DNA from: Candidatus Moraniibacteriota bacterium
GTDB taxonomy: Bacteria > Patescibacteriota > Minisyncoccia > Moranbacterales > UBA9337
Assembly: GCA_026985555.1 (NCBI GenBank)
Contig: JALSQF010000007.1
Location: 1,099 to 65,098 of the forward strand
Length of the DNA: 64,000 nt
Reading direction: 5' to 3'
Under the pieces are notes generated by a model. The model saw only the letters and a program-made list of their open reading frames with translations, made no database searches and was not told the origin of the DNA. Made by a program: the position numbers and the translations under genes. Of the stretch, positions 27,821-64,000 are shown one piece after another (positions within the stretch are counted from its first letter, which is position 1; every line of letters begins with the position of its first letter).

Positions 27821-27825
27821 GGTTT

Positions 27826-28437: not shown

Positions 28438-28456
28438 ATTTAATAATAAAAAAAAT

Positions 28457-38674: not shown

Positions 38675-38707
38675 CTTAAAATATTTTTATTTTTTAGTAA
38701 TAAACAT

Positions 38708-39094
38708 ATGACACAAAAAAAATCTCAAAAAAAAGTAGTTTTATTAGTAGAAGACGATATTTTTATTAGAGAAATTTATGATAGAAAAATAACTGCTGAA
38801 GGATATGAGGTAGAATTAGCTAAGGATGGAGTAGAAGCTATTAATTTTTTAAAAAAACAAATCCCGGATTTAATTTTATTAGATATTGTAATGCCCAGAA
38901 TGGACGGAAGAGAAGTTTTAGCAAAATTAAAATCTCATAAAGAATGGAAAAATATTCCGGTTATAATGTTAACTAATCTTTCTGAAAAAGAAGAAATAGA
39001 AGAAGAACTGGGGCAAGGAGTAGATGAGTATATAATTAAAGCGCATTTTACTCCATCAGAAGTAATGGCTAAAATAAAAAAATTTTTAATTTGA
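38708..39094 (+). CDS. Stand-alone CheY-like response-regulator receiver domain
   Basis: VLLVEDD...LLDIVMP(R)MDG with the phospho-acceptor Asp, then T and K (KAHF) receiver motifs. 128 aa with no output domain. Confidence 0.75.
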   Translation: MTQKKSQKKVVLLVEDDIFIREIYDRKITAEGYEVELAKDGVEAINFLKKQIPDLILLDIVMPRMDGREVLAKLKSHKEWKNIPVIMLTNLSEKEEIEEELGQGVDEYIIKAHFTPSEVMAKIKKFLI

Positions 39095-39129
39095 TTAACT
39101 TTAATTAACAAAAAAACAAAAAGAAAAGT

Positions 39130-40206
39130 ATGTCACTTTTACACGCAGAGCAAAAAGTAAAAAGTTTATTGTTAACAGTTTCGCAACAAAATGCTTCTGA
39201 TATTCATTTTGTAGTGGGACGTTATCCTACCTTAAGGATTGACGGAAAGCTTTTTCCCTTACGTAAAGAAAAAGTTTTGACTGCTGAAGATACTCAGGCA
39301 GTAAGTGATGTTTTATTAACAGAAGACAATAAAAAAACGTTACTTGACGCTGGTCAAGTTGATTTTTCTTATAGTTTTGAAAATAAATCTCGTTTTCGTG
39401 TTAATATTTATTTTCAGAAAGGAAATATTAGCATAGCTATGCGTTTAATTTCTTCTAAAATAAAAACTTTAGAAGAATTAAATTTACCTACCTCTCTTTA
39501 TGATTTTTGTAATTATTCTCAAGGTCTGATTTTAGTGACAGGACCAGTGGGTCATGGTAAATCAACCACATTAGCGGCTTTATTAGATTATATTAATCAT
39601 AATTTTGATCAAAATATTCTAACCATTGAAGATCCTATTGAATATGTTTATGAACAAGATCGTTGTATTGTTAATCAAAGGGAAATAGGTAGTGATGCTA
39701 AATCTTTTCCCGCTGCGTTAAAAGCTCTTTTTCGTGAGGATGCTAATGTGGTAATGATTGGTGAGATGCGTGATCTAGAGACTATTGGAACCACTATTAC
39801 TGCAGCAGAAATTGGACATTTAATTTTTGCTACTTTGCACACTAATAACAGCGCGCAGACCATTGATAGGATTATTGACAGTTTTCCAGCTCATCAACAA
39901 AATCAGATTCGTTTGCAATTGGCCAGTGTTCTAGTGGGAGTTATTTCCCAAAGGCTATTGCCTCGTATAGGGGGAGGAAGAGTGCCTGCTATTGAAATTA
40001 TGATTAAGAATAAAGCTATAGAAAATCTAATTAGAGAAAATAAAATCTATCAAATTGATTCGGTAATAGAAACTAATTTAGGCAACAATATGATTTCTTT
40101 AGATCGTTCTCTAGCTAATCTGGTAGAAAAAGGTCTTATTACCATGAATGATGCTACTACCTATGCTCAAGATAGAGAATATTTAAAAATGATTATTAAA
40201 GGGTAA
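39130..40206 (+). CDS. pilT: Twitching-motility retraction ATPase PilT
   Basis: 358 aa. Walker A GPVGHGKSTT, IEDPIEYV Asp box, His box (GHLIFATLHTN) and the PilT-specific AIENLIRE motif. It lacks the PilB N-domain. Confidence 0.85.
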   Translation: MSLLHAEQKVKSLLLTVSQQNASDIHFVVGRYPTLRIDGKLFPLRKEKVLTAEDTQAVSDVLLTEDNKKTLLDAGQVDFSYSFENKSRFRVNIYFQKGNISIAMRLISSKIKTLEELNLPTSLYDFCNYSQGLILVTGPVGHGKSTTLAALLDYINHNFDQNILTIEDPIEYVYEQDRCIVNQREIGSDAKSFPAALKALFREDANVVMIGEMRDLETIGTTITAAEIGHLIFATLHTNNSAQTIDRIIDSFPAHQQNQIRLQLASVLVGVISQRLLPRIGGGRVPAIEIMIKNKAIENLIRENKIYQIDSVIETNLGNNMISLDRSLANLVEKGLITMNDATTYAQDREYLKMIIKG

Positions 40207-40281
40207 TTGTGAAAAAAGAATAAATATAGTATAATTTGTTTAAGAATTTTTATTAAAAATATAAATCGGAAAAACAAAAAT

Positions 40282-41490
40282 ATGATCTTTATTTTTAAAG
40301 CTAAAACAAACAAAGGCGATATCAAAAAAGGAAAAATAGAAGCATTAAGCAGAGAAGCAGCTGTGCGGACTTTACAAGATAATAATTTAATACCCATCTT
40401 TATCACACAACAGAAGGAAGAACCAGAAATTTTAAAAGAATTAAAAAGAGTCTGGGAAGGAGTTACTACTAAAGATTTAATGTTTCTTTTTCGTCAGTTA
40501 GCTACTTTGATTGGAGCTAGAGTGCCTATTGTATCATCCTTAAAAGCTATTTCAGATCAAAGCAATAACAAGTATTTAAAAGAAGTCTTAAATGATATTA
40601 TAGAAAATGTAGAAGATGGAATGTCTTTATCAGAAGCTATGAAAAATCATCCCGATGTTTTTTCTAGTATAGAAATAAATTTAATTGCTGCTGGAGAAGT
40701 TTCTGGTGGCTTACAGAAAACCATAGAATATATTGCTAACAATATAGAAAAAAACTATAAACTAACTTCTAAAGTAAAAGGAGCTTTGTTTTATCCTGCT
40801 TTTGTGGTGAGTGCTGCGGGTTTAATTGGATTTCTAACAATTAGTTTTATTTTACCTAATATTACTAGCATTATTAAAGACATGGAATTAGAGGTGGCTT
40901 GGTATACTCAAGCATTGATGTCTTTAGGTGATTTTATGAAAGCTTATTGGTGGGCGGTTTTAATAGCTATATTTAGTGCTATAGGTGGTTTTATTTATTA
41001 TATTAATACTTCTGCAGGAAGAAAAGATTGGGATATTTTGCAGTTGAAAATACCTGTTATTGGAAAAATATTACGCTATGTCTATCTTTCTCGTTTTGGA
41101 AGTAATTTAGCTATTCTTTTAAAAGGGGGTTTGCCAGTGGTGAAAGCCTTGATTATTTCTTCTAGTGTAGTAGGTAACGGAGTGTATCGGGGTATAATTT
41201 TAAAAGCGGCTGATGAAGTGAAGGTAGGAGGAACAATGAGTAGTTATTTTCAAGGTGTCAGAGAAATTCCACCCATTGTTACTAAAATGATTAAAGTGGG
41301 AGAGGAAACAGGAAAGCTAGATGAATCCTTATCTAATGTGGCTAATTTTTATGAAGGAGAAGCTGATAATATGGTAAGAAATTTATCTACCTTAATTGAA
41401 CCGGTATTAATTGTTATTTTAGGCATAGGTGTAGCTATTTTAGTGTTTGGAATTATGATGCCTATTTATGGAATTATTAATCAATTGTAA
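40282..41490 (+). CDS. pilC: Type IV pilus inner-membrane platform protein PilC (GspF family)
   Basis: Two GspF repeats with three TM helices. The spacing fits the T2SSF domain. Confidence 0.8.
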   Translation: MIFIFKAKTNKGDIKKGKIEALSREAAVRTLQDNNLIPIFITQQKEEPEILKELKRVWEGVTTKDLMFLFRQLATLIGARVPIVSSLKAISDQSNNKYLKEVLNDIIENVEDGMSLSEAMKNHPDVFSSIEINLIAAGEVSGGLQKTIEYIANNIEKNYKLTSKVKGALFYPAFVVSAAGLIGFLTISFILPNITSIIKDMELEVAWYTQALMSLGDFMKAYWWAVLIAIFSAIGGFIYYINTSAGRKDWDILQLKIPVIGKILRYVYLSRFGSNLAILLKGGLPVVKALIISSSVVGNGVYRGIILKAADEVKVGGTMSSYFQGVREIPPIVTKMIKVGEETGKLDESLSNVANFYEGEADNMVRNLSTLIEPVLIVILGIGVAILVFGIMMPIYGIINQL

Positions 41491-41617
41491 ACAGATATTT
41501 TTTAAAGAGTAATAATCTGTTATAATAGATAAAGTGAAACATTAATAATAATTTGAAGAAGGAAAGTTTTAATATAGTTAATAACTAAAATAAAAATAGA
41601 ATGGAGGTGAAATATAA

Positions 41618-42061
41618 ATGATAAATCAAACTAAAAAAGGATTTACTTTAATTGAATTATTGATTGTGATTGCTATTATTGGTATTTTAGCTTCTATTAT
41701 TTTGGTAAGTTTGAATAGTGCAAGAAATAAGGCAACGGTAGCTGCCTATAAGTCAACAGTTAGTAGTTTAGTTCCGGCAGTAACAATGTGTTGTGATAAT
41801 GCTACTAATACTCTTCAAACTACTGCTGGAAGTGATATATGTAGTGTTGCAGTTGGTTCTAATCTTCCTTCAGCAGCTGATATGAAAGCATCATCTGTAA
41901 CATATGCATCTGTAAATGATTGCAGCACAAGTAATCCTGCTATTTCCGTTACACCTGCAGGCTTACCTATCTCTGCTTGTAATGCAACTGTTTATGTGTC
42001 AACACAAGGAATTTATTCTGATTCTAGTTTAACAACTTCTGGTTTTCCGTCAGGTTGTTAA
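41618..42061 (+). CDS. Type IV pilin (class III signal peptide), Cys-rich variable domain, ends in SGC
   Basis: [20 protein letters not shown] is a prepilin leader with G-1, F+1 and E+5. GGAGGTG Shine-Dalgarno upstream. Elevated local GC and Ala/Ser/Thr content. A terminator lies downstream. Confidence 0.75.
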
Positions 42062-42079
42062 TTTCACTCAAAGATTTTT

Positions 42080-42117
42080 TTGCTTGTTGAATAATTCAAC
42101 AAGCAAGTTAAGTTTTT
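42080..42117 (+). terminator. Rho-independent terminator after the first pilin gene
   Basis: 12-bp stem TTGCTTGTTGAA / TTCAACAAGCAA with a 3-nt loop, then a TTTTT run. Confidence 0.6.
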
Positions 42118-42508
42118 GAATGAAATAATATATGGTTTATTTATTAAGTGGCGCACAATGAAAACAGATCAAATAGCGATTAAAAAACATTTTTTAATTT
42201 TCATATTTAGTGGGTTGTTTTTAATGGGAACACTATTTTTATTTGGAAAAGCCAGTAATCAAGCAAATATTAAAAAAGTGGAGTTTGGTTATCCCTTTAG
42301 TTTTTTAAAAGAAGATTTCAGTGATTATAATGAAAATTTTTCTTTTTTTCCTCGTTATTTTAAATTAGAACTAAAAAAGCTTTTTTGGAAAAATGTTAAT
42401 TGGATAAATTTGTTATTCTCTTGGCTAAGCATATTTTTTGGTTTAGAATTAATTATTTATATATTAGAAGAAATAATTTTTAGAATTAAATTGAGATTTA
42501 AAAAATAA
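42116..42508 (+). CDS. Hypothetical small membrane protein between the two pilin paralogs
   Basis: 130 aa with two TM helices and no motif. Confidence 0.3.
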   Translation: MNEIIYGLFIKWRTMKTDQIAIKKHFLIFIFSGLFLMGTLFLFGKASNQANIKKVEFGYPFSFLKEDFSDYNENFSFFPRYFKLELKKLFWKNVNWINLLFSWLSIFFGLELIIYILEEIIFRIKLRFKK

Positions 42509-42515
42509 AAAGAAA

Positions 42516-42938
42516 ATGAAAATAAATTTTAAAAAAAAAGGATTTACTTTAATTGAATTATTGATTGTGGTGGCCATTATTAGTATTTTAGTGTCTGTTA
42601 TTTTAGTTTCAGTTATTTCCGGCAAAAGAAAAGCAAAAGATGCTTCTTTCAAGAGCACTGTTAGTAGTTTAAGTAAAGCGATGGTGATGTGTTGTGGTAA
42701 AAGAAATGGATTAATTCAAACAGATGTAGATGGGAGTGTGTGTAATCCTCCTGATGCAGGAGTTAATTATCCAGGATCTGATAGTATTGGTAGCATAGAT
42801 GTTTCTGCAGGTTCTAATCATAATTGTTCTAATGGCTCTTTTCGTGTAACTGTTACTCCAGGAAGTAAAAATAAAGGTAATTGTAATAGTGCAGTAATTA
42901 CAATAAATGGTCCTGATTATAGTAATTCTGGATGTTAG
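42516..42938 (+). CDS. Type IV pilin, paralog of 41618-42061
   Basis: [20 protein letters not shown] leader. It shares the KSTVSSL...MCC core and the terminal SGC with the first pilin. Confidence 0.75.
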   Translation: MKINFKKKGFTLIELLIVVAIISILVSVILVSVISGKRKAKDASFKSTVSSLSKAMVMCCGKRNGLIQTDVDGSVCNPPDAGVNYPGSDSIGSIDVSAGSNHNCSNGSFRVTVTPGSKNKGNCNSAVITINGPDYSNSGC

Positions 42939-42975
42939 TTTTTTAATCAAGAATAATCAATTTTTAATAGGAAAT

Positions 42976-43782
42976 ATGGAGTTGATTATATTTTTTATTG
43001 TAGGTCTTATGGTGGGTAGTTTTTTGAATGTGGTAATTTATCGCTTAAACTTAGCAGAATCTATTTTTTGGGGAAGATCACATTGTCCTCATTGTAAGGC
43101 TAAAATTAATTGGTATGACAATATTCCTTTGTTAAGTTTTATTTTGTTGCAAGGAAAATGTCGCTATTGTGGAGAAAAAATATCTTGGCAATATCCTATA
43201 GTGGAATTTTCAACGGGATTATCTTTTATCTTGTTAGCGGAAATTTTTTTGCAAAATCATTCTTGGTTAAATTGGTTAGAAGTAATTTTTTATTTGGTGT
43301 TAGTAAGTTTACTGATAGTTATTTTGGTCTACGATCTTAAGTTTTTAAAAATACCTTTATTAATTATTTGGTTAGCCGTAGCTTGGACAAGCGCTTATTA
43401 TTTATTAGTAGATAGCTTTAATTTTCCTGTTTTAATTAATTTTTGGGATTCTCGTTTTTTAAGCGGTTTAATAGGCGGAGCGATAGCCAGTAGCTTCTTT
43501 TTATTTTTAGTAATTATTTCACGAGAAAAATGGATGGGAATGGGAGATGTTTATTTGGGTTTTTTAATCGGATTAGTAATTGGTTGGCCAAATATTTTAT
43601 TAGTTTTAATGCTTTCTTTTTTGTTAGGATCAGTGGTAGGACTTACTTTAGTGATAAGTAAAAGAAAAAAAATGAGTAGCCAATTACCTTTCGGACCATT
43701 TTTAATAATTAGTTTATTTTTAATTATTTTTTTGTTAAAATTTTTTCCAGCTATAGATAGTTATTTAAGATTTTATTATTAA
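42976..43782 (+). CDS. pilD: Prepilin peptidase / N-methyltransferase (A24 family)
   Basis: Tetracysteine CPHC...CRYC zinc motif, the catalytic Asp region DLKFLKIP, and the GMGDVYL motif. The start was moved to the ATG at 42976 within the track ORF. Confidence 0.8.
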   Translation: MELIIFFIVGLMVGSFLNVVIYRLNLAESIFWGRSHCPHCKAKINWYDNIPLLSFILLQGKCRYCGEKISWQYPIVEFSTGLSFILLAEIFLQNHSWLNWLEVIFYLVLVSLLIVILVYDLKFLKIPLLIIWLAVAWTSAYYLLVDSFNFPVLINFWDSRFLSGLIGGAIASSFFLFLVIISREKWMGMGDVYLGFLIGLVIGWPNILLVLMLSFLLGSVVGLTLVISKRKKMSSQLPFGPFLIISLFLIIFLLKFFPAIDSYLRFYY

Positions 43783-43805
43783 ATAAAAAATAATTTTCCA
43801 TAAAA

Positions 43806-44297
43806 ATGTTTAATGCAATAAAAAATTATAAAAAAAATCAAGGAGTAACCTTAATTGAATTAGTGGTAGTAATAGCTATTATTAGTATTATGTCAGTGGT
43901 TGTTTTGGTTATAGTGAGTAAACAAACAAGAACTAAAAAAGATTTAGAAATAGAGGCTAGAAAAGTTCTAGCCGTTATAGAACAAACAAGAAATTTTTCT
44001 TTAACGGGTAAAAACGCTGGAACAAATAATTGCACAAATAATGTTTTTGAAGCTGCTATGGGTGGAGATCATACTAAATATGGTATTTCTGGTTGTAATT
44101 CTGTTGTCTATAATTTAAGCTCTGGTTTTACTTTTGATTCGTCTGTTAGTTTTGCTTTTAGTATTCCACATGGTAAACTAGATTTTGGAAGTGGGTGCAA
44201 AGATGTGCATATAAAGAAAAATAATCAGCATTATCATATTTGTGTTTATTCCAATGGAGAAGTTGAATTAAAGGGAGGTCAAAGTTGTGGTTGTTAA
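43806..44297 (+). CDS. Pilin-like protein (prepilin-type N-terminus, Cys-rich C-terminus)
   Basis: NQGVTLIELVVVIAIISIM leader. The C-terminus GGQSCGC is reminiscent of the SGC ends of the major pilins. Confidence 0.55.
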   Translation: MFNAIKNYKKNQGVTLIELVVVIAIISIMSVVVLVIVSKQTRTKKDLEIEARKVLAVIEQTRNFSLTGKNAGTNNCTNNVFEAAMGGDHTKYGISGCNSVVYNLSSGFTFDSSVSFAFSIPHGKLDFGSGCKDVHIKKNNQHYHICVYSNGEVELKGGQSCGC

Positions 44298-44331
44298 CTA
44301 AATTTATAAAATTATCCAAAGAAAAAATATT

Positions 44332-44937
44332 ATGTTAAAAAAGAATCTTAAAAAACAGAAAATTAAGAAGAAGAAAAGAAATTATTTTCTTCCGGGTTTT
44401 TCTTTGGGAGAGGTTCTTTTATCCGTATTTATTTTAGCTTCAGTTTTAACTGTGGCAGTGGGATTAATAGCTGGAGATTTGCGCTATATGATAAATAGCC
44501 AAGATAGGGTAATTGCTAGTGGTTTAGCCCAGGAAGGAATAGAATTAGTGATGAATATTCGGGATAATAATTGGGAGAAAGGAAATGGAGCCTTTGAAAA
44601 TGGTTTTCCTAATGATAGTAGTTATAATCAAATAATAAATTATGATAGTAATAGTCTAGAATCAGGATCAAGAAAGAACAAATTAAATATTAATAACAAT
44701 AATTTTTATACTCACAATAGTGGCACAGAGACAAAGTTTCAAAGAAAAATTATTGTTAATTATTATCAAAATGGTAGTAGTATCAATAGTAAAAATAATG
44801 CTGACGAAGCAGAAATATTTTCAGTAGTTATATGGGGAAATAGTTTTCCATCAGGAACATCAATAAATGAAAGTAATTGTAATGCTTCTACTAAGTGCGC
44901 CTTTGCTAAAGTAACCTTAACTAAATGGAATGGATAA
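44332..44937 (+). CDS. Minor pilin/pseudopilin-like protein
   Basis: PGFSLGEVLLSVFILASVL is a prepilin cleavage/methylation motif with Glu at +5. It overlaps the next gene by 8 nt. Confidence 0.5.
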   Translation: MLKKNLKKQKIKKKKRNYFLPGFSLGEVLLSVFILASVLTVAVGLIAGDLRYMINSQDRVIASGLAQEGIELVMNIRDNNWEKGNGAFENGFPNDSSYNQIINYDSNSLESGSRKNKLNINNNNFYTHNSGTETKFQRKIIVNYYQNGSSINSKNNADEAEIFSVVIWGNSFPSGTSINESNCNASTKCAFAKVTLTKWNG

Positions 44938-45478
44938 AAATATGTTAAAGAAAAAAATAATCTTTAAGGACAAGAGAAACAAGCAAGCTTTTACTTTAAT
45001 AGAAGTAGTGGTCGCTATGGCAATTTTTTCTATTATTATGTTAGCGGTTACTCAGGTTTTTGTGAGTATTATAAAAAGTTATCGGGTAGCTAAACGAATG
45101 CAAAGAAATATAGAAAATTCTCAGTATGCATTGAATTTTATTAGTAAAACACTGAGAACGAGTGAAATAAAAGATTCTTCTGATCCTTCTACTTTAGAAC
45201 TTTTTGATCCTTCTCAGGGAAAGTGTTTTGTTTTTCAATTAAAGGATAATCATTTGCAATGGGCATCAGATGATTCAAATTCTCCTACTCAATTATCTGA
45301 GTGTAATTTTGGTAGTATGTTCCCAGTTAATTTTATTAATAGTGAAATTACCGGTAGATTTCTTATAGTTTCAAATAATTCAGGAAATACAGTAGGAAAA
45401 GTGACGATTAATTTAACAACACAAGAGGGAAATAAGTCAGCTCATTTTCAAACTACACTTTCTTTAAGAAATCATTAA
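44930..45478 (+). CDS. Minor pilin/pseudopilin-like protein
   Basis: KQAFTLIEVVVAMAIFSI prepilin leader. Confidence 0.55.
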   Translation: MDKNMLKKKIIFKDKRNKQAFTLIEVVVAMAIFSIIMLAVTQVFVSIIKSYRVAKRMQRNIENSQYALNFISKTLRTSEIKDSSDPSTLELFDPSQGKCFVFQLKDNHLQWASDDSNSPTQLSECNFGSMFPVNFINSEITGRFLIVSNNSGNTVGKVTINLTTQEGNKSAHFQTTLSLRNH

Positions 45479-53937: not shown

Positions 53938-54816
53938 ATGTGGAGATGGAGAAAAATAGTTTATAGTGTTTTATTAATTATTTTTGTATTAGATGTTGTT
54001 TTAGCTTTAATAATTAGAAGCAGTTTTTTTTCTCAAAAATTTCAAATAATATTTTTTAACATAGGACAAGGAGACGCTATTCTAGTTCAACAAGGAAAAA
54101 ATCAAGTTTTAATTGATGGAGGAAGATCGGAAAAAAAACTTTTAGAAAAGTTAGGAAAATATGTGCCTTTTTGGGACAGAGAGATAGAAGTGATAGAAGC
54201 TACTCATCCTGATAGTGATCACATTACAGGATTAATTGGAGCTTTAAAAAATTATAAGGTTGATTATATTTTAAAAACCAGAAATCAGAGCCAAACAAAG
54301 ACTTTTCAGGCTTTTCAGCAAGCTATCAAGGAAGAAGTAAGAAATGGCGGAAAAATTTTAGAAGCTTCTCAAGGACTGAAAATTAAGTTTCCGCAAGGAG
54401 GAGAAGCTAAAATAATATATCCTTTTAACCCACTTCAAAATAATTCTTTTAACAAAAATGAAAACAGTATAGTTACTCAAATTCTTTATAAAAAAAATTC
54501 TTTTTTACTAATGGGAGATCTTCCTAGTCAACAAGAAAGAGAATTAATTAAACATCATTTATCTCTTCAGTCGCAAGTTTTAAAAATAGGGCATCATGGC
54601 TCTCGTTCGTCTAGTTGTAATGAATTTTTAACTTATGTACATCCTCAAGTGGCTATTATTTCAGTGGGAAAAAATAGTTATGGGCATCCCCATAAAGAGG
54701 TTTTAAAGCGATTAGTTCAACATCAGATTAAATTTTGGCGGACGGATAAAGTAGGAGATATAGAATATCTTTGCAACAAGGATGAGTGTCATTTGGTTTT
54801 ATCTCAAGAGAAATAA
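53938..54816 (+). CDS. Stand-alone ComEC/Rec2-type metallo-beta-lactamase domain protein with an N-terminal TM anchor
   Basis: FFNIGQGDAILVQ...IDGG, THPDSDHITGL (HxHxDH) and KIGHHGSRSSS motifs of the ComEC C-terminal MBL domain. It lacks the competence-channel domains. Confidence 0.65.
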   Translation: MWRWRKIVYSVLLIIFVLDVVLALIIRSSFFSQKFQIIFFNIGQGDAILVQQGKNQVLIDGGRSEKKLLEKLGKYVPFWDREIEVIEATHPDSDHITGLIGALKNYKVDYILKTRNQSQTKTFQAFQQAIKEEVRNGGKILEASQGLKIKFPQGGEAKIIYPFNPLQNNSFNKNENSIVTQILYKKNSFLLMGDLPSQQERELIKHHLSLQSQVLKIGHHGSRSSSCNEFLTYVHPQVAIISVGKNSYGHPHKEVLKRLVQHQIKFWRTDKVGDIEYLCNKDECHLVLSQEK

Positions 54817-55124: not shown

Positions 55125-55643
55125 ATGAAAAAGTTTATTATTGTTGTGTTGGTGGTTTTGTGTTTTGTTGAGATTTCTTACGGATATAGAGTTTCAATAA
55201 ATGAGGATATTGAGGGCAGGGGATTTTCTTCAATAGAAGTTAAATTTCCGTTTTTTGACAAGAAATCTAAATGTTATTATCAAGAAAACTTCTATCCAGG
55301 TAAAAATGGTAATGTTGTTTTTCTATGTACCGATCCTGGAGATGGTAAAATAATTTATGCCAGAAGACGTTTTTCTATAACTGACCCGCCGGTTTGTATT
55401 ATAACAGAATACAAACCTCCAGCCATTTGGGAATGGGGAAGTTTAGGATGTACTAGTGAGATAACAATGATTAAAAAAATATATTTTAAATGGGGGAATA
55501 AAACAGTAGTAAGCATTCCTCCTTATCAGTTTCCTGAAAAAGGTATTACTGATAAACAGGTTGCTTCTGTGCAGTTGTTTATGAAATTTTTTGAAGATGT
55601 TTTTCAAAAAAAAGTAAAAAAGAAAATAAAATATCACTGGTGA
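55125..55643 (+). CDS. Small secreted Cys-containing protein
   Basis: AGGAGG Shine-Dalgarno 8 nt upstream and a signal peptide (MKKFIIVVLVVLCFVEISYG). 172 aa with 6 Cys. A strong terminator follows. Confidence 0.4.
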   Translation: MKKFIIVVLVVLCFVEISYGYRVSINEDIEGRGFSSIEVKFPFFDKKSKCYYQENFYPGKNGNVVFLCTDPGDGKIIYARRRFSITDPPVCIITEYKPPAIWEWGSLGCTSEITMIKKIYFKWGNKTVVSIPPYQFPEKGITDKQVASVQLFMKFFEDVFQKKVKKKIKYHW

Positions 55644-55667
55644 TATTTTATTTTCTTTTAAAATGAG

Positions 55668-55700
55668 AACCTTGCTATTAAGCAAGGTTTTTTATTTTTA
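55668..55700 (+). terminator. Rho-independent terminator
   Basis: 9-bp stem AACCTTGCT/AGCAAGGTT, loop ATTA, then TTTTTTATTTTTATTT. Confidence 0.7.
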
Positions 55701-55813
55701 TTTACTTTTTTGGAAAGTTTCTTTGAAATATAGTTGTTACTTCTTTGAAAATATGTTATATTAAAAATGAAATTTTTTATATTTTTTAAATAATCATTTT
55801 AAAAAAGGATTTA

Positions 55814-57793
55814 ATGATTTTCAGTCAGAAAACAAAAAGAAAAAAAAAGAATAAACTTAAAATTTTATTTTTAGCAGTTTTGATAATTTTTATTTTTTCA
55901 GGAAGTAATTTAAAGGTGTGTTTAGCAGAAAGAACATGGCAGCCGTCTGATGCATTTGGTATTCAAAAAAGTGGTTGGTTATATTATTTAGGTGGGTGGG
56001 GATTAACAGATTATGTATATGATTTTTTTACTGGACATATTAAAAATAACTGGAGATCAATGGGTCAAGTAATAAAGGATACAGCTACAGATGGTTTTCT
56101 TTGGGTTTTTAATTGGATATTATTTGCAGTTTGGTGGGTTTTAGCTTGGTTTATTGGAATAGCAGGGTTACTTTTTGATTGGGCAATAGATGCTAATAAT
56201 TTAAAAGCAATTATTCATAATGAAGGGATTTATGATGCCTGGAAGATTGTGAGAGATTTTCTTAATTTAGGATTTATTTTAGTTTTACTTTTCAGTGCTT
56301 TTTCTACGGTATTTCAAATTGAAAAATATCATTTAAAAAAAATTCTTTTGATGTTAGTTTTGATGGCGCTTTTAGTTAATTTTAGTTTTCCTATTTCACG
56401 TTTCATTATTGATTCTTCTAATATGACGATGTATTATTTATTAAATCAACGTTTCAGTGACGAATCTAGGAGCGATAGCATTAGCTCTAAAATAATGTAT
56501 TATTCTAACATAACCAGACAGTTTGTTCCTAATATAAGTAAAACAAATGCAAATTATACAAAGCAAATTTTAATTGTAATCATTTTTACTTTCATTTTAA
56601 TGATAACCTTGGCATCTCTAGCAGCTATTATGGTTGTGCGTATTTTTGCTTTGGCTTTGCTAATTATTTTTTCTTCGGTTGGTTTTGTAGCTGCTATTTT
56701 GCCTAGCGCAGAATCTTTTTCTAGTAAATGGTGGGATAATTTATTTAAATATTCTTTTGTGGGACCAACAATGATATTTATGTTAATTATATCTTTTCGG
56801 ATGATGGATAGCTTAGGTGGGAGCGAATTAGGAAGCGCCATAAATCAATTAAAAACTTTAGCTTCTGATTATGATCCTGTTAGCGGAGAAATAGCAAAAC
56901 AAAGCATAGCTGACGCGGCTTATTTTTTTCTTCCGATAGTTTTACTCTGGGCTTCTATTTTGGTGGCGCAATCCATGGGTGTTTATGGAGCTAGCGCAGT
57001 GGTTAATACAGCAGGTAGAGTTAAAAGTTGGGGAGCAAAATATTTAACAGGTTATAGTTTAGCTAAGTGGGGTGTAAAAACTTTGCCCAAAAAAGCAGTT
57101 CAATCAACCGGTGTTCCTGGTGGCGTGAAACAAAGATGGCTTAGTTTTAAAGACAGGTTAGAGTCTAAACAAAAAAGTAGAGAAGCTCGTGTGGCAGCTC
57201 GTTTAGGAGATAAAACAGCTAAAAGAAAAGATATGTTAAGAAGAGCGGATGAATATGAAAAAGAACATATTATAGATGATGAATTAAAAAATAGAGCTAA
57301 GAAAGGAGATAATGCAGCTGCTTATGCTTTGGCTAATAGAGGGAAAATGGATAGAGAGACCTATTTGAGTGTGCAGGATAAAATAAAAGATAAAGAAGTT
57401 CTGGATATAATTAATGGCAAAGTTAAAGAAAAGAGAATTGATTTAGTGGTTGATTATAAAGTTAATAATCCTATAGAATTAAGTAAAGCAAGAAATCAAT
57501 TAGCTCAAATTCAGGGTGTAGAACCAGGATCAATTAATGATGAAGATGTAAAAGAATATATTGTTCGTGAAGAAATAGGAAATTTATCGCCAGAACAATT
57601 TGCAGGACAAAACTGGAAGGGTATAAATACTGATATTAGTAGGAGAGGAAATGAAAAATTAGCTGATACAATTAAAGAAGTAACGGAAAAAACTTTTGAT
57701 GAAATGTCAGAAGATGCTAAAAAAAGAATACGTTCTAATGTAAGTGCTAATCAAGCTAAAGTTCTTAGAAAAGAATTTGCGGTAATTGTTTAA
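55814..57793 (+). CDS. VirB6/TrbL-like polytopic membrane protein (T4SS channel candidate)
   Basis: Signal/anchor, then about six TM helices rich in Trp/Phe, then a 250-aa charged cytoplasmic tail. Assigned by topology plus its position in the cluster with VirB3-like and VirB4 genes. Confidence 0.35.
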   Translation: MIFSQKTKRKKKNKLKILFLAVLIIFIFSGSNLKVCLAERTWQPSDAFGIQKSGWLYYLGGWGLTDYVYDFFTGHIKNNWRSMGQVIKDTATDGFLWVFNWILFAVWWVLAWFIGIAGLLFDWAIDANNLKAIIHNEGIYDAWKIVRDFLNLGFILVLLFSAFSTVFQIEKYHLKKILLMLVLMALLVNFSFPISRFIIDSSNMTMYYLLNQRFSDESRSDSISSKIMYYSNITRQFVPNISKTNANYTKQILIVIIFTFILMITLASLAAIMVVRIFALALLIIFSSVGFVAAILPSAESFSSKWWDNLFKYSFVGPTMIFMLIISFRMMDSLGGSELGSAINQLKTLASDYDPVSGEIAKQSIADAAYFFLPIVLLWASILVAQSMGVYGASAVVNTAGRVKSWGAKYLTGYSLAKWGVKTLPKKAVQSTGVPGGVKQRWLSFKDRLESKQKSREARVAARLGDKTAKRKDMLRRADEYEKEHIIDDELKNRAKKGDNAAAYALANRGKMDRETYLSVQDKIKDKEVLDIINGKVKEKRIDLVVDYKVNNPIELSKARNQLAQIQGVEPGSINDEDVKEYIVREEIGNLSPEQFAGQNWKGINTDISRRGNEKLADTIKEVTEKTFDEMSEDAKKRIRSNVSANQAKVLRKEFAVIV

Positions 57794-57801
57794 TTTGTCA
57801 T

Positions 57802-59079
57802 ATGCAAACTAAATTTAAATTTTCTCAACTGAATAAAAAAAAGCAAATAGAGTTGTGCACCCTGCCACAAAGTGTTTTTGTTACAGTTAATCCAGATGAT
57901 GAAACAGAGGAAGATATAGAAAATCGTCAAGAAAAATTTTTAGCTTTACCGACAGATATAAAGGAAAAATTAGTTTCTTATGAAACGGCTAAAATTATTC
58001 AAAAGATTGGTAAAAAATATAACTTAGAGCTATTGCAATTAGCCTCTCTAGCGCGTGCTATCAGAAGTTATTATTTTAAAGAATTAAAGCTAGATGATTT
58101 TCCGCGAATTTTTATTAGAGAGGCAAAAATTGATAGGGAAACAGCGCAAAATATTTCTCAAGAACTAATTAATAAAATTATAAACAATAACAATGTATCA
58201 AATAAAATAAAAGAAAATATAATTTTATTGCCGATACAACAGGCCTTAAATCAGTATGAAAGGTTAGGAGAGCAGACAATTACTAGTGAAAGAATAAAAA
58301 TTAAACCTTTATCGGAATCGGCCCGTCCATCTATAAAAAATTGGATTTATGATTATCATTATCATTTAGGAACAGGAAGCCATACCGTTATGGAAAGAGG
58401 AAACTATTTGTTTCATAGTGAAAATACAAAAAAATTAACCAATATGGAAAGAAAGAAATTAGCGCTTATTTTAAAATCATTGGATGAGCAAGATCCTTTA
58501 AAAATAGATAAAGAAAAAGAGGAAGTTATTTTTCCGGTAGAAAATAATATAGATTTAGTTGATCTTTATCCAAAACCGAAAAAAAAGATGCGACATATTA
58601 AACAGAAAATAGAAAATAATTTTCCTAATAATTTTTCTTCAAATAAAATTTCTAAAAATATTTCTAAAAATAAACAAAGAAAAGCTTCTTTTCAAAAGAA
58701 AAAGGTTAAATTAGCTAAAGAAACTATTTCTCATCCAGAACATTGGTTAGTAGGTCAAGATCATAAAACGATGTTTCAGTCTGTCTTTAATGAATTAAAG
58801 AACAAAGAAAAGGATCAAGCACAATTAAAAACAGAAATGAAAAATAAAGTTGATAAAACTAAACAATATAAAGAAAATAAGCAGTCTGATCAAAAAACAA
58901 TGAAAAAGGATTCAAAAAGTATTGATAATACTAAAAAAAATAAAGATGAATTTAATCAATTAAAGAAAGATACTAAAAACAACTATTTAAAATCAAGATT
59001 GTTTCGCATTCGTCCCAGTGGCGCGCAAAGAGAGATTTTAAAAAGCGCGCAAAATGTAATTAACTTAAAAGAAAAATAA
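57802..59079 (+). CDS. Hypothetical soluble protein in the T4SS-like cluster
   Basis: 425 aa, K/E/N-rich, no TM. Confidence 0.3.
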   Translation: MQTKFKFSQLNKKKQIELCTLPQSVFVTVNPDDETEEDIENRQEKFLALPTDIKEKLVSYETAKIIQKIGKKYNLELLQLASLARAIRSYYFKELKLDDFPRIFIREAKIDRETAQNISQELINKIINNNNVSNKIKENIILLPIQQALNQYERLGEQTITSERIKIKPLSESARPSIKNWIYDYHYHLGTGSHTVMERGNYLFHSENTKKLTNMERKKLALILKSLDEQDPLKIDKEKEEVIFPVENNIDLVDLYPKPKKKMRHIKQKIENNFPNNFSSNKISKNISKNKQRKASFQKKKVKLAKETISHPEHWLVGQDHKTMFQSVFNELKNKEKDQAQLKTEMKNKVDKTKQYKENKQSDQKTMKKDSKSIDNTKKNKDEFNQLKKDTKNNYLKSRLFRIRPSGAQREILKSAQNVINLKEK

Positions 59080-59085
59080 ACAACA

Positions 59086-59484
59086 ATGCTATTTAATGTT
59101 CCTCAGTTTGTTGATATAGAAGATAAAATAGTAGGGCCCTTTACTGCTAAGCAGTTGCTTTGGATGTTTGGTATGGCTGCTGTTTTATTAATTGTATGGA
59201 ATGTTTTTGATCAAAAAACTTTTTGGATTTCAAGTATTCCTATTGTTTTACTTTTTTTAGCGTTAGCTTTTTATCGTCCTTTTGGATTGCCTTTTATTAA
59301 ATTTATTTTTCTAACAATCTTATTTTTAATAAGACCTAAGGTGTATGTTTGGCAGAGAGAGGTAGGTCCCATAAGAAAAAATCTGGTTGAAAATTTAGAA
59401 AAAGTTTCTAAGAAAAAGAAAAAAACTAAAAAATTTGAAACAAAAAAAGCGAAACAAATAGCTCAGTTAATGGATAAATACTAA
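59086..59484 (+). CDS. PrgI/VirB3-like small membrane protein
   Basis: 132 aa with two TM helices after a short N-terminus (GPFTAKQLLWMFGMAAVLLIV). Size, topology and its position directly upstream of VirB4 match VirB3/PrgI/TcpE-like proteins. Confidence 0.4.
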   Translation: MLFNVPQFVDIEDKIVGPFTAKQLLWMFGMAAVLLIVWNVFDQKTFWISSIPIVLLFLALAFYRPFGLPFIKFIFLTILFLIRPKVYVWQREVGPIRKNLVENLEKVSKKKKKTKKFETKKAKQIAQLMDKY

Positions 59485-59513
59485 TTTATTATTTATTGGT
59501 AAATAATTATTTT

Positions 59514-60197
59514 ATGAAATTATTTAAAAAGAAAGCAACTAAAAATCCAGCCATTAGCACTCAACGTTATGTAGACGTGGATAGTGTCAAGGATAATGTG
59601 ATTATTTTAAAAAATGGTTCTTTAAGAGCGGTTTTAATGGTGTCTTCTATAAATTTTGATTTAAAATCTGCTGAGGAGCAGGATGCTATTATTGCGAGTT
59701 ATCAAAATTTTCTTAATTCTTTAGATTTCTCTGTGCAAATTATAGTCAACTCTCGTCGTTTTGATATTAACCCTTATTTGAAAATGTTAAGAGAAAAAGA
59801 AATGTTACAAGAAAATGAATTATTAAAAATGCAAATAGCTGAATATCATGATTTTATTAAAAGTCTAGTAGATGTTTCTCAAATAATGTCAAAAATGTTT
59901 TATATAGTTGTTCCTTTTTATCCAGTGGAGAATAAAAAAGGTGGTATAATAGATAGAATTACAAATGTAATTATGCCTGAAAAAAAATTTATTTTTAATA
60001 AAGAAATTTTTGAAACGTATAAAAATCAGCTTTGGCAAAGAGTGGAGCAGGTACAGACAGCTTTGAATGGAACAGGAATTAGAATGGTTTTATTAAAAAC
60101 GGACGAATTAATAGAGTTATTGTATAATTCTTATAATCCATCTTTAGAGAGATATAGTACACTTAAAGATGTGGATAAGTTAGATTTTGAAATTTAA
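59514..60197 (+). CDS. VirB4 N-terminal-domain-like protein (possible split VirB4)
   Basis: DNVIILKNGSLRAVLMVSSINFDLKSAEEQDAIIASYQNFLNSLDFSVQIIVNSRR resembles the conserved N-terminal domain of VirB4/TrbE/CagE ATPases. The track ORF starts at a TTG (59496), so the ATG at 59514 is preferred. Confidence 0.45.
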   Translation: MKLFKKKATKNPAISTQRYVDVDSVKDNVIILKNGSLRAVLMVSSINFDLKSAEEQDAIIASYQNFLNSLDFSVQIIVNSRRFDINPYLKMLREKEMLQENELLKMQIAEYHDFIKSLVDVSQIMSKMFYIVVPFYPVENKKGGIIDRITNVIMPEKKFIFNKEIFETYKNQLWQRVEQVQTALNGTGIRMVLLKTDELIELLYNSYNPSLERYSTLKDVDKLDFEI

Positions 60198-60229
60198 TGT
60201 TTTAAATAATTATTTATTTAATTTTTATA

Positions 60230-62083
60230 GTGGTTATGTTTTTTAGCGAAAAGAAGCCTAAAACAAAAAAAGAAATAGAAACAATGGATGCCATTTCAGC
60301 TAATGAGAGTTTATATAAAGAAGGATTAAGCACCTTGCGTGATTTAATTGCCCCAGCTGCTATTAAAACTGCTCCTCAATATGTAGAAATAGGTGATGCT
60401 TTTTCTAAAACGATTTTTGTAATGACCTATCCTAAATTTTTAAATACAAACTGGTTTTCTCCCATTATTAATATTGATTTTCCTCTAAATATTGCTATGT
60501 TCATACATCCAATGGAAACAGCTGACGTTTTAAGAAATTTGAGAAAAAGTGCTACCCAAGTGCAATCTCAAATAAATATAGAAGCTGAAGAGGGAAAAAT
60601 TCGTAATCCAGTTTTAGAATCAGCTCTTACTAATATAGAGGATTTGCGAGATAAACTGCAACAAGGAACAGAAAGGTTTTTTCGTTTTGGTCTTTATATC
60701 ACTGTTTTTGGTGAAGATTTAAGTGAAGCAGAGAAAAATATTGCTTCGGTAGAAACTATTTTAGAAGCCCAATTAGTTTATACTAAACCAGCTATTATGA
60801 GAATGGAGCAGGGGTTGATTTCAACCATACCTTTAGGTGAGGACAAATTAGATGCAGCTAATAATTTAAACACTTCTCCTTTATCTACCACTTTTCCTTT
60901 TGTTTCTTCCGATTTAACTTCTAATCAGGGAATTTTATATGGAATCAATCGTCATAATAATAGCCTTATTTTATTTGATCGTTTTGAAATGGAAAATGCT
61001 AATATGGTTATTTTTGCTAAATCAGGAGCAGGAAAAAGTTATATGGTTAAATTAGAAATTCTAAGATCAATGATGCTGGATACCGATATTATCGTAATTG
61101 ATCCCGAAAATGAATATAAGCATTTAAGTGAAACAGTGGGAGGTTCTTTTGTAAAGATTTCTCTTAATTCTAAAGTGCATCTTAATCCATTTGATTTACC
61201 CAAACCCAGAAAAGATGAGGATAATGCAGATATTTTTAGGTCTAGCGTAGCTCAATTAATTGGTTTGTTACATATTATGTTAGGTTCGGTAACTCCTGAA
61301 GAAGATTCTATATTAGATGAAGCTATTAGAGAAACTTATGCAGTTAGAGATATAACTCCAGAAAGTAATTTTAATATTTTAACTAAAGATGCTTTTCCTA
61401 CAATGACAGATCTTTATGAAGTTTTACGTAACATGGATGGAGCTGAATCCTTAACTCAACGTTTAAAAAAATATACGGAAGGAATTTTTGCTGGATTTAC
61501 TAATCATCATACTAATATAGAAATAAATAATCAATTGATGGTATTTAATATTAGAGATTTAGAAGATGAATTAAGGCCAGTGGCAATGCATTTAATTATG
61601 CAATATGTTTGGAACGAAATGAGAAGTGAATTGAGAAAAAGATTGTTAATAGTAGATGAGGCTTGGATAATGATGCGACATGAAGATGCAGCCGCTTTTT
61701 TCTTTAGTATAGCTAAACGTTGTCGTAAGTATTATACGGGATTAACTACTATTACACAGGATATTAATGATTTTATGACATCTAGATATGGAAAACCTAT
61801 TATAACCAACTCTTCTTTACAAGTACTTTTAAGACAATCTCCAGCTTCTATTGATACCATTACTGAAACTTTTTACCTTACTGAACAAGAAAAATTTTTA
61901 CTTTTAGAAAGTAACGTAGGAGAAGGAATATTTTTTGCTGGCAATAAGCATGCAGCAATAAAAGTGGTTGCTTCTTACAGTGAAGATCAAATTATAACTT
62001 CTGATCCACGTCAATTATTAGAAATAGAAGAGGCTAAAAAAGAATTAGAAGAGGAAGATGAGCATTTTGAAGAAAGAAAATAA
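60230..62083 (+). CDS. VirB4-family type IV secretion ATPase (central plus C-terminal ATPase domains)
   Basis: Central VEIGDAFSKTIFVMTYPKFLNTNWFSPIINIDF region, Walker A AKSGAGKSY, and the VirB4-type Walker B LLIVDEAWIMM (the DEAW motif). GTG start per the ORF track. Confidence 0.7.
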   Translation: MVMFFSEKKPKTKKEIETMDAISANESLYKEGLSTLRDLIAPAAIKTAPQYVEIGDAFSKTIFVMTYPKFLNTNWFSPIINIDFPLNIAMFIHPMETADVLRNLRKSATQVQSQINIEAEEGKIRNPVLESALTNIEDLRDKLQQGTERFFRFGLYITVFGEDLSEAEKNIASVETILEAQLVYTKPAIMRMEQGLISTIPLGEDKLDAANNLNTSPLSTTFPFVSSDLTSNQGILYGINRHNNSLILFDRFEMENANMVIFAKSGAGKSYMVKLEILRSMMLDTDIIVIDPENEYKHLSETVGGSFVKISLNSKVHLNPFDLPKPRKDEDNADIFRSSVAQLIGLLHIMLGSVTPEEDSILDEAIRETYAVRDITPESNFNILTKDAFPTMTDLYEVLRNMDGAESLTQRLKKYTEGIFAGFTNHHTNIEINNQLMVFNIRDLEDELRPVAMHLIMQYVWNEMRSELRKRLLIVDEAWIMMRHEDAAAFFFSIAKRCRKYYTGLTTITQDINDFMTSRYGKPIITNSSLQVLLRQSPASIDTITETFYLTEQEKFLLLESNVGEGIFFAGNKHAAIKVVASYSEDQIITSDPRQLLEIEEAKKELEEEDEHFEERK

Positions 62084-62099
62084 AAATAAATTTTAAATT

Positions 62100-62492
62100 A
62101 TGTTTTTGGGACTACCTTTTTCAATTGCTATATTTTATATAGTAGCTCTGGCAATAGCCATACTAAAAGATTTATTAGATTTGGTTTTTATAACATCTCT
62201 TCCTGGTATTGGATCTATTTTAACTTTGCTTTTTTCTGGTTTAATATTCATTCTTATTTTTTTAGCTGGAATAATGGGTATAATTTTAGGCAAAGGAAAA
62301 ACGAAAATAAGTTCTACTATGAGGTTTTTAAGGTTTTTGAAACGTTTCGGAGTATTTTTAGGAGGAACAGTTACAGAGGAGCTGTTGGGTTTAAATTTTT
62401 TTCCTTTTGAAACAGTTACAGTAGCAATAATTATGTGGATGCATGGTCATTCCTATAAGAAAGCCAAAAAAGAAAAAAACCAAGGTAGTTAA
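62100..62492 (+). CDS. Small polytopic membrane protein
   Basis: 130 aa, about four TM helices, basic C-terminus. Confidence 0.3.
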   Translation: MFLGLPFSIAIFYIVALAIAILKDLLDLVFITSLPGIGSILTLLFSGLIFILIFLAGIMGIILGKGKTKISSTMRFLRFLKRFGVFLGGTVTEELLGLNFFPFETVTVAIIMWMHGHSYKKAKKEKNQGS

Positions 62493-62518
62493 TTATTCTA
62501 ATTTTAAAATAATAGCAG

Positions 62519-63196
62519 ATGAGAAAAAATATAGAGAAAAAAATAAAACCGTTAGATAAAAAATTTTTTTTCGTTTCCATTTTTTTCCTAATTTTGATTT
62601 TAATAAGTCAATATTATCCTATAAATAAGGACGACACTTTTCAAAATATTAGTTTAGCTATTGTTTTTATGTTGGTAATACCTATTTTATTTATTAAAAT
62701 AGTTCTCAAAGAAAAACTAGAAAGCTATGGCTTTAAATTAATAACCAAAAAGAAAGTAATTTTTAATATTATATTGTTTTTAATGATTGTTCTAGTGTTA
62801 TTTTTAGCACTATTTAAATATATTTTAATTAAGCAAAATTATAATTTACCTCTTATTTTTCATCAATATTTTCTCTCCTTTTTTCTTTTAGAGTTTTTAG
62901 TTATGTCCCTAGTTTTATTATTGATAGAAGTTTTTTTCAGAGGCGTTATTCAGTTTTTTTTAGAACAATATTTTAGTTCAATAAAAGCTATATTATTGCA
63001 ATCAATATTATTTTTTCTTCTTTTGTATTTTTCTGGCTCAAAAAATGAAATATTAGAATGGCCTTTTTTACAATTGATTTTAATAGCTCCTCTAGCTGGT
63101 TGGATTGCTAAAGAAAGTAAATCCTGGTTTTATTCTTGGCTATTTAGTTGGTTATTTATGATTTTAAGTGATGCAATTATTATTTATTTTAAATAA
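62519..63196 (+). CDS. CPBP-family (CAAX protease / Abi) intramembrane metalloprotease-like protein
   Basis: Polytopic. LLIEVFFRGVIQ matches CPBP motif 1 (EExxxR with FRG). Confidence 0.4.
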   Translation: MRKNIEKKIKPLDKKFFFVSIFFLILILISQYYPINKDDTFQNISLAIVFMLVIPILFIKIVLKEKLESYGFKLITKKKVIFNIILFLMIVLVLFLALFKYILIKQNYNLPLIFHQYFLSFFLLEFLVMSLVLLLIEVFFRGVIQFFLEQYFSSIKAILLQSILFFLLLYFSGSKNEILEWPFLQLILIAPLAGWIAKESKSWFYSWLFSWLFMILSDAIIIYFK

Positions 63197-63255
63197 GTTG
63201 TCAATAAATAAAAAAAAGGTTAAAATAAAAATAAAGAAAATATAAAAAACAAAAT

Positions 63256-64000
63256 ATGAAAAAAATAATAAAAATAAACTCAATCTTTTTCATAATTTTT
63301 GTAGGGATTTTTTTAAATTTTAAAAATGTTTCAGCTATTGTTGTGCATAGTATCACTAGATCAGCTGTAATGGACGTAATACGTTATACAGAAGATCATT
63401 ATCATATTGATGATAATAGTGTGAGAGATTCTATGGAAAGAATGAATGTAGCTAATCGGAAAGGATCAGCGCCAGAAGTTAAACTCTTTTTTTCTCCTAG
63501 TGACCCTAAGCCAGGAGAAAAAATAACCGCTACTGCTTTACCGATGTATTTTTCTCAACCTAAAGAGAAATCTTATTTTACTTGGTATTTAAAACAAAAA
63601 GGGTGTGATTTATGTGAAAATAATTCTACTGTGAATAGATGTTCTTCTATGCAATTAAAAAAATGTGATGAAAATAAAGATAATAGAGTTACCGTAGAAG
63701 ACTGGAAAATAACAGCTATGAAAATAATTGCTCAAAATGGTTTTGACAAAAATACAGAGGGTAAAAATAATACTGATGATGATGGTTACCGTGCTCATTT
63801 AGGAGGAGATACTAATCGTCGTCCTACTTTTGGATATCATTGTTTTTTACATGACTTTAATAATGGAAAAAATTATGAAATGATAAATCATTGTGAGCAT
63901 ATTTTTCCTAATGCTTTATTGTTTAGGGATGGAAGGACGCATCACTATGTAACAGGAGACGGAGTTTTTGGTAAAGATGAAGAATCTTTTTGGGGGACTG
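63256..64000 (+). CDS. Secreted Cys-rich protein (partial, runs off the window end)
   Basis: ATG at 63256 with a signal peptide (MKKIIKINSIFFIIFVGIFLNFKNVSA). Open to the end of the window. Multiple Cys/His (CDLCEN, HCFLHDF, HCEH). Confidence 0.4.
   Translation, partial: MKKIIKINSIFFIIFVGIFLNFKNVSAIVVHSITRSAVMDVIRYTEDHYHIDDNSVRDSMERMNVANRKGSAPEVKLFFSPSDPKPGEKITATALPMYFSQPKEKSYFTWYLKQKGCDLCENNSTVNRCSSMQLKKCDENKDNRVTVEDWKITAMKIIAQNGFDKNTEGKNNTDDDGYRAHLGGDTNRRPTFGYHCFLHDFNNGKNYEMINHCEHIFPNALLFRDGRTHHYVTGDGVFGKDEESFWGT

Follow-up and report, generated by a model that had tools for sequence, protein, structure and literature searches.

A probable chromosomal and vertically inherited Patescibacteria type IV secretion system in a Moranbacteria-like genome

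A 64,000-nt stretch of contig JALSQF010000007.1 from a Candidatus Moraniibacteriota genome (hereafter the window, meaning the whole stretch of DNA analyzed) carries a cluster of type IV secretion system (T4SS) genes on its plus strand, at positions 55125–64000. Our analysis makes it highly probable that this cluster is a chromosomal, vertically inherited Patescibacteria T4SS, housed in a Moranbacteria-like genome and related to the monoderm MPF_FATA conjugation machinery, and that it is not conjugative. Vertical inheritance is argued from the gene order and the 53–73% VirB4 identity kept across many candidate phyla, with variants that are lineage-coherent. A conjugation apparatus is disfavored because no relaxase was matched in the window and because the coupling-type ATPase lies 24 kb away. 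The initial annotation had proposed a minimal monoderm-style T4SS in a Candidate Phyla Radiation (CPR) genome, a proposal borne out by family matches, by synteny across 80 genomes, and by the published view (PMC12102498; PMC10633639).

Every window open reading frame (ORF) of at least 90 residues was scanned against Pfam, and the operon products were also compared with NCBIfam. Sequence past the window end was taken from the source contig, which overlaps the window by 18,187 bases with 0 mismatches (offset 45813) and brings the total to about 68 kb. A search of species-representative genomes returned at least 189 VirB4 matches, and the best 80 loci were used for synteny. The best 34 relatives (62–73% VirB4 identity) are mostly metagenome-assembled genomes (MAGs) of Candidatus Moraniibacteriota/Moranbacteria and are referred to here as Moran-like loci; the next 46 (53–62% identity) include Doudna-, Komeili-, Kerfeld-, Yanofsky-, and Kuenenbacteria, among others. 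Most of the 80 are titled Patescibacteria MAGs, and some third-party-assembly (TPA) records are otherwise named, e.g. 'uncultured Bdellovibrionales'. Counterparts of each gene were sought by tblastn within 10 kb of virB4, counting only loci with enough flanking sequence, hence the differing denominators below.

The VirB4 ATPase is encoded at 60230–62083 and corresponds to the C-terminal two-thirds of a canonical VirB4. It scores 361.4 bits against the conju_CD1110 profile (cut-off 325), covering positions 179–730 of 752, and matches PF19044 (P-loop_TraG) with an E-value of 3e-28. Both Walker motifs are intact: the Walker A motif AKSGAGKS is encoded at nt 61016–61039, and the Walker B motif LLIVDEAW contains the DEAW sequence (nt 61655–61666) noted in the initial annotation. 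The ORF starts with GTG, and the database gene call begins 6 nt later. The VirB4 N-terminal domain is present as a gene of its own directly upstream, at 59496–60197 (start at 59514 in the source-contig annotation). Its TrsD-like product matches NF041427 (TrsD/TraD, 1.4e-8), covers positions 85–283 of the VirB4_plasma profile and 6–113 of CD1110, and has a precomputed PF26593 (TraC-like) assignment, in keeping with its original description as a VirB4 N-terminal-domain-like ORF. Together, the TrsD-like protein and VirB4 tile one VirB4 profile and therefore constitute a split VirB4. The two are separate ORFs in 79 of 79 loci and fused in none. The best plasmid VirB4s originate in Actinobacteria and Firmicutes; they reach only 28–35% identity, also in the case of one annotated as 'CD1110 family', to the protein described here, compared with 53–73% for the 80 related loci.

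Upstream of the split VirB4 lies a gene for a PrgI/VirB3-like small membrane protein of 132 residues (59086–59484). It matches PF12666 at 31.9 bits, above the cut-off of 27, with hydrophobic segments at residues 19–88. Hidden Markov model matches above cut-off thus back both the VirB3-like and the VirB4 assignments made initially. The first gene of the operon (55814–57793) encodes a 659-residue polytopic membrane protein built of a ~440-residue helical membrane domain followed by a 219-residue charged tail (47 Lys+Arg, 41 Asp+Glu). The protein itself falls below Pfam thresholds, and comparison of its alignment profile with Protein Data Bank (PDB) sequences returned only coiled-coil or chance matches. 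Family transitivity and fold support its assignment: 14 of 41 syntenic homologues match TrbL/VirB6 PF04610 (best 6.7e-10), and many of the 362 database homologues carry a precomputed PF04610 or PF19590 assignment. The product belongs to the VirB6/TrbL family, has the polytopic domain, and is an extended member by virtue of its tail, much as first described.

Between the VirB6 and PrgI genes, 57802–59079 encodes protein C, a 425-residue protein with no predicted transmembrane (TM) segment, matching its earlier description as soluble. A conserved ~250-residue N-terminal domain is followed by a low-complexity, Lys-rich tail. Protein C stands beside virB4 in 64 of 66 loci (27/29 Moran-like, 37/37 others) and is as tightly linked as PrgI and TrsD; its homologues amount to about 700 diverse cluster representatives. 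The predicted fold is confident (pLDDT 92), and it matched no solved structure; no Pfam family was found either. A VirB8-like identity was ruled out, as the protein is without a TM segment and without a structural match.

PrgI and TrsD are likewise near-universal, PrgI being retained in 71 of 72 loci (31/32 Moran-like, 40/40 others) and the TrsD-like gene in 30/32 and 42/42, respectively. VirB6 is found beside virB4 in 21/23 Moran-like and 15/30 other Patescibacteria loci. The block PrgI-TrsD-VirB4 recurs in nearly all 80 species genomes, and the full order, VirB6-C-PrgI-TrsD-VirB4-G-CPBP-I, recurs in Moran-like loci. This arrangement, found again across 80 species-level genomes, is far beyond chance.

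All nine ORFs originally assigned to the cluster were found on the plus strand where they had been placed, and from 55814 onward the intergenic gaps measure only 6–59 nt. The first of the nine, ORF A (55125–55643, plus strand), encodes a secreted protein of 172 residues with no Pfam or NCBIfam match. Its signal peptide supports the earlier label 'secreted'; the label 'Cys-rich' fares less well, with four Cys in the mature part, and membership of the cluster is doubtful. The gap between ORF A and the VirB6 gene spans 170 nt and holds a terminator-like hairpin (55665–55692, plus strand; 12-bp stem followed by a T-run), and tblastn found no counterpart of ORF A in the 80 virB4 loci. The operon start is therefore set at 55814, with the hairpin as its upstream boundary, and ORF A probably lies outside the T4SS operon. 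A promoter scan was uninformative, yielding 75 sites against 75.6 expected. Farther upstream, bordering the T4SS region, 53938–54816 (plus strand) encodes a stand-alone metallo-β-lactamase (MBL) part of ComEC, limited to the C-terminal portion (TIGR00361 positions 413–663). This gene shows no synteny with virB4 across the 80 related loci.

The surroundings are those of a chromosome. The neighbors within the window are housekeeping genes, among them IleRS, ClpB, BipA, and PBP2, together with glycosyltransferases of the cell envelope; a type IV pilus locus is also present in full (34086–45478). The GC content of the window ranges from 27 to 31%, with a value of 28.7% for the cluster versus 27.6% for the rest, and the cumulative GC skew climbs steadily. 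No window ORF of at least 90 residues matched a relaxase, integrase, or plasmid replication family in Pfam (oriT was not searched separately), which upholds the earlier remark that no relaxase is visible and leaves conjugation unlikely. Neither dnaA nor dnaN was matched among the scanned ORFs. A tRNA-Lys gene is located ~6 kb upstream of the cluster, with its 3' end directed away from it.

Downstream of virB4, the operon continues with three genes that distinguish the Moran-like loci. Protein G (62100–62492) is a small polytopic membrane protein of 130 residues, as initially annotated, with invariant residues K23, D24, D27, T90, E93, and P102 in an alignment of 22 homologues. It occurs in 32 of 34 Moran-like loci and in 1 of 42 others. 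Neither Pfam nor NCBIfam offers a credible family for it (PF18895 appears in one of 22 members, at E = 0.06 only), and hhalign detected no relation to the first or second gene after virB4 in other lineages. An identity as a VirB2-like pilin was set aside as unproven on these two grounds.

The following gene (62519–63196) encodes a 225-residue polytopic membrane protein of the CPBP/Rce1-like type (PF02517, 25.3 bits against a cut-off of 22.4), with weak NCBIfam matches to MrtS/MrtA. It is present in 32 of 34 Moran-like loci and in none of 35 others. Its alignment profile returned only coiled-coil or chance matches among PDB sequences. CPBP proteases carry the catalytic motifs EExxxR, FxxxH, and HxxxN/D. 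In the family found here, motif 1 reads Y/I-E-F-F-F-R-G, in which the first Glu of EExxxR is replaced, and an alignment of 28 sequences lacks any His that is invariant or nearly so. This casts doubt on canonical proteolysis, and the protein may be a pseudo-protease or may carry out a different chemistry. The Rce1-like domain of the initial 'CPBP intramembrane protease-like' assignment is thus retained and its enzymatic half placed in question. A role as the sorting protease for the membrane anchor of the adjoining protein I was also considered; the MrtS/MrtA matches speak for it and the lack of a conserved His against it, which leaves it as speculation only.

Protein I begins at 63256 (plus strand) and is cut by the window end at 64000. 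The source contig supplies its full sequence of 878 residues, which extends to contig-equivalent coordinate 65892. A signal peptide leads into a large ectodomain that contains Cys, and a TM anchor closes the C-terminus, in line with the secretion that the initial annotation assigned to a Cys/His-rich protein at this position. The anchor is conserved in 27 homologues, whose lengths range from 780 to 1135 residues. Protein I is found in 27 of 29 Moran-like loci and in none of 30 others, and it matches no family in either Pfam or NCBIfam; its 248-residue N-terminal fragment, used alone as a query, retrieved two homologues only. Directly after it, just past the window (contig-equivalent 65925–67025), lies the gene for a TolB-like β-propeller of 366 residues with an N-terminal TM segment (TIGR02800, 1.7e-6), followed by an α/β hydrolase gene. 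The propeller differs from these three operon proteins in not being Moran-restricted: it is found downstream of virB4 in 20 of 25 Moran-like and 19 of 28 other loci, and it may be a further conserved T4SS-linked component. By their distribution, G, the CPBP-like protein, and protein I make up a lineage-specific module of the Moran-like loci sampled.

The corresponding positions in non-Moran loci have a different content. Gene +1 after virB4 encodes a ~200-residue bitopic protein with one TM segment and a domain bearing a FGSWSTDNQGANL motif, a layout that recalls VirB8, and the product of gene +2, with two TM segments behind a charged N-terminus, is pilin-like in layout. In the window described here, no ORF matched TrbC or T4SS_pilin, and no suitable small ORF for a VirB2-like pilin was present in the intergenic gaps. 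A tentative joint reading, which we regard as possible though far from established, is that the Moranbacteria-like T4SS swapped VirB2-pilin/VirB8-type outer parts for G, a His-less CPBP-fold protein, and protein I (~800–1100 residues), perhaps with the propeller, and that protein C is a core subunit of the Patescibacteria T4SS that had so far gone unnamed.

By analogy with characterized systems, VirB6 would form a membrane channel or platform. PrgI/VirB3 would tether the complex of the TrsD-like protein and the VirB4 ATPase to the membrane beside the VirB6 channel, and the TrsD-like protein would supply the N-terminal domain that full-length VirB4s use for contacts with the membrane and with partners. 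Conjecturally, from linkage, protein C is probably a cytoplasmic partner or adaptor of the ATPase or of the VirB6 tail, and protein I and the TolB-like propeller would form a wall-spanning or host-contact part. The envelope-spanning part of the machine is conjectural because no VirB8-, VirB1-, or VirB2-like gene was recognized in the operon. The assembled T4SS would most likely transfer proteins, or macromolecules of another kind, between epibiont and host cell. Export to the host ranks first, and effector export is a serious possibility, if short of an even chance; import of host material comes second and is somewhat doubtful; assembly of a surface structure or adhesion comes third and is improbable. 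Conjugation is unlikely.

Two further candidate components are encoded far from the operon. A VirD4/TraD-like ATPase of 829 residues (28904–31393, plus strand) had been proposed as a coupling protein, and the family matches agree: PF10412 (4.2e-11) and PF02534 (4.8e-8) exceed their cut-offs, and PF12696 was matched as well. One N-terminal TM segment, an N-terminal region of ~400 residues without a family, a Walker A motif (GQTGTGKS), and a Walker B-like motif (FYLYIDE) complete its architecture. The gene lies 24.4 kb upstream of the operon start. Immediately upstream of it, at 27149–28897 (plus strand), a PolB-type 3'-5' exonuclease is encoded as a protein of its own (PF10108, 1e-21), next to two family-less ORFs of 214 and 146 residues; these genes may form a unit with the VirD4-like gene. 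The second candidate (25075–26370, plus strand) encodes a coiled-coil protein, anchored in the membrane, that carries an SLT_2 lytic transglycosylase domain (PF13406, 7.2e-9) and shows weak MltB matches. It is the sole SLT gene of the window, 29 kb from the operon, and could possibly act as an unlinked VirB1 stand-in, judging from its domain content. Of the two peptidoglycan hydrolases originally proposed, this one stands, with its start moved from 25093 to 25075, and the other falls: positions 1–266 hold an 88-residue fragment on the minus strand with no family match. In the 80 loci, neither the VirD4-like nor the SLT gene was ever found within 10 kb of virB4.

The system matches a published group. 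Quinonero-Coronel et al. searched 3,035 Patescibacteria genomes in 2025 and found VirB4 in 2,407 assemblies, forming a monophyletic clade nested in MPF_FATA (PMC12102498). In that survey, TrsD is the most frequent partner, PrgI/VirB3 and VirB6 occur near virB4, VirB2-like pilins are present in many genomes, coupling protein (T4CP) homologues lie mostly far from virB4, relaxases occur in 103 genomes only, and the location is chromosomal (PMC12102498). The component set, which the initial annotation had presented as only partly recognizable, had therefore already been catalogued. The cluster shares with this clade its chromosomal location, an MPF_FATA-like VirB4 that follows a separate TrsD-like gene and PrgI/VirB3, a VirB6 nearby, a distant T4CP, and the lack of a relaxase match in 64 kb. 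It differs in having no VirB2-like pilin or pilin array detected near virB4 and no peptidase or lysozyme downstream, with the module of G, the CPBP-like protein, and the anchored surface protein instead. CPBP is not mentioned in the text or in two supplementary files of that study (PMC12102498).

Among the conjugative MPF_FATA systems, the closest are those of CTn2 (CD1110 VirB4, CD1115 T4CP), pGO1/pSK41 (TrsC-TrsD-TrsE), and pCF10 (PrgH-PrgI-PrgJ). The families that best match VirB4, the TrsD-like protein, PrgI, and the VirD4-like ATPase are theirs, and they share the VirB6-VirB3-VirB4 core order and the lack of outer-membrane components. The cluster differs from them in its distant VirB4 sequence, in its setting on a housekeeping chromosome, and in having no relaxase match, no in-cluster VirB1 hydrolase, no recognizable VirB8-like protein or adhesin, and no adjacent T4CP. 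Compared with TrwI/VirB6 in the stalk complex of the R388 Trw system (PDB 7o3v, 8rt9), the VirB6 described here is 12% identical in sequence and has the extra 219-residue charged tail; the VirB5, VirB2, and outer-membrane core partners were not detected. Archaeal Ced and Helicobacter pylori ComB are likewise systems with a VirB4-family ATPase, without relaxase, engaged in a non-conjugative task, but no CedA-like or ComB-specific components were identified here, and the CedB and CedD matches are weak. CPBP/Rce1 proteases, including MrtS/MrtA, resemble the CPBP-like protein in their polytopic Rce1-like domain, found here above the gathering cut-off, and in adjoining a protein with a C-terminal TM anchor, and differ from it in the catalytic residues described above.

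The Ced and ComB parallels raise the possibility of a DNA-import machine that feeds a nucleotide-auxotrophic cell, perhaps together with the ComEC-type domain encoded upstream. That gene, the type IV pilus locus in the same window, and weak matches of VirB4 to CedB (1.5e-12) and of the VirD4-like protein to CedD (2.4e-6) are compatible with such a role, and uptake has been proposed in the literature (PMC11665869; PMC12857230). However, the ComEC-MBL gene lacks synteny with virB4 in the 80 loci and is separated from the operon by ORF A and the terminator-like hairpin, and the Ced matches are far weaker than the 361-bit match to the conjugative CD1110 profile. Moreover, deletion of comEC in S. 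epibionticum kills competence and not viability, whereas the T4SS is essential (PMC12857230), so the two functions are separable. We consider DNA import unlikely. The main task of the machine could instead be to build or hold a surface structure, be it a pilus-like fiber or protein I as an adhesin, with no translocation of cargo. A surface protein of 780–1135 residues with a C-terminal anchor is indeed encoded in the operon in 27 of 29 Moran-like loci, and in other Patescibacteria, essential VirB2-like pilin arrays lie beside virB4 (PMC12102498; PMC12857230). Against this, a VirB2-like pilin was not detected here, and protein I, itself equipped with a Sec signal peptide, has no obvious need for a T4SS. 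To our knowledge, VirB6 and VirB4 are translocon components in all systems studied. A purely structural role seems quite improbable.

The cluster might, finally, belong to an integrated conjugative element, as its transfer module or as what decay has left of it, with relaxase and oriT outside the window. For VirB4, TrsD, PrgI, and the VirD4-like protein, the nearest characterized relatives serve in conjugation and are of the CTn2, pGO1, and pCF10 type, a tRNA-Lys gene is located ~6 kb upstream, and a minority of Patescibacteria carry relaxases (PMC12102498). Integration at tRNA-Lys was rejected, given the orientation of its 3' end and the lack of any integrase family match. The absence of relaxase, integrase, and replication families from the scanned ORFs of the 64 kb, the housekeeping flanks, and the uniform base composition also speak against a mobile element, as do the gene order and VirB4 identity kept across candidate phyla. 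The published phylogeny likewise concludes vertical inheritance (PMC12102498). All genes are intact with conserved motifs, and the cluster is therefore not decaying. An integrated element is accordingly very improbable.

Several points weigh against the interpretation of the cluster as a vertically inherited, non-conjugative Patescibacteria T4SS. The relaxase scan covers 64 kb, or about 68 kb once the source-contig sequence is counted, and placement in the Patescibacteria VirB4 clade rests on nearest neighbors. The VirD4-like protein scores far below the cut-offs of the NCBIfam T4CP equivalogs, conju_CD1115 (9.4e-12) included, and it may serve another function. VirB8-, VirB1-, and VirB2-like genes went unrecognized in the operon in a search whose structure-level comparison covered VirB6 and protein C, and the roles given to C, G, the CPBP-like protein, and I are conjectures from conserved linkage. 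Substrate, effector, and direction of transport are not readable from sequence.

Other features of the window stand apart from the T4SS. The type IV pilus locus on the plus strand is complete, comprising PilM, PilN, PilO, a PilB-type ATPase, a response regulator, a PilT-type ATPase, PilC, several N-methyl pilins, and a prepilin peptidase. At 20664–24227 (plus strand), an IleRS-like protein of 1187 residues contains a histidine phosphatase domain (PF00300, 3.7e-33; res. 512–671) with a stretch of class I synthetase domain on either side; such an insertion or fusion is unusual. A glycosyltransferase ORF with a GTG start (4068–4967, plus strand) overlaps the Mg-chelatase-like/ComM-type gene at 2663–4183 by 116 nt, and its true start probably lies further downstream than 4068.

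The cluster is another clean and complete example of the Patescibacteria T4SS, from a Moranbacteria-like lineage, of a system that is itself already published. Its importance for the group comes from the saccharibacterium S. epibionticum, the sole genetically tractable member, whose T4SS is essential for epibiotic growth. Wang et al. showed in 2023 that the orthologous cluster SEML1_0006-0019 is essential for growth on the host and suggested protein export or another capacity (PMC10633639), and the essentiality of the T4SS is also reported elsewhere (PMC12857230). Later reviews regard its function as completely unknown, with delivery of effectors and uptake of molecules from the host both under discussion (PMC11665869; PMC12857230). 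The present cluster leaves knowledge of the Patescibacteria T4SS as such unchanged, and its modest added value lies in the accessory genes. Two leads that may help in dissecting the machine are protein C, near-universal and with an unmatched fold, and the Moran-like surface module, situated at a locus without a detected pilin gene.

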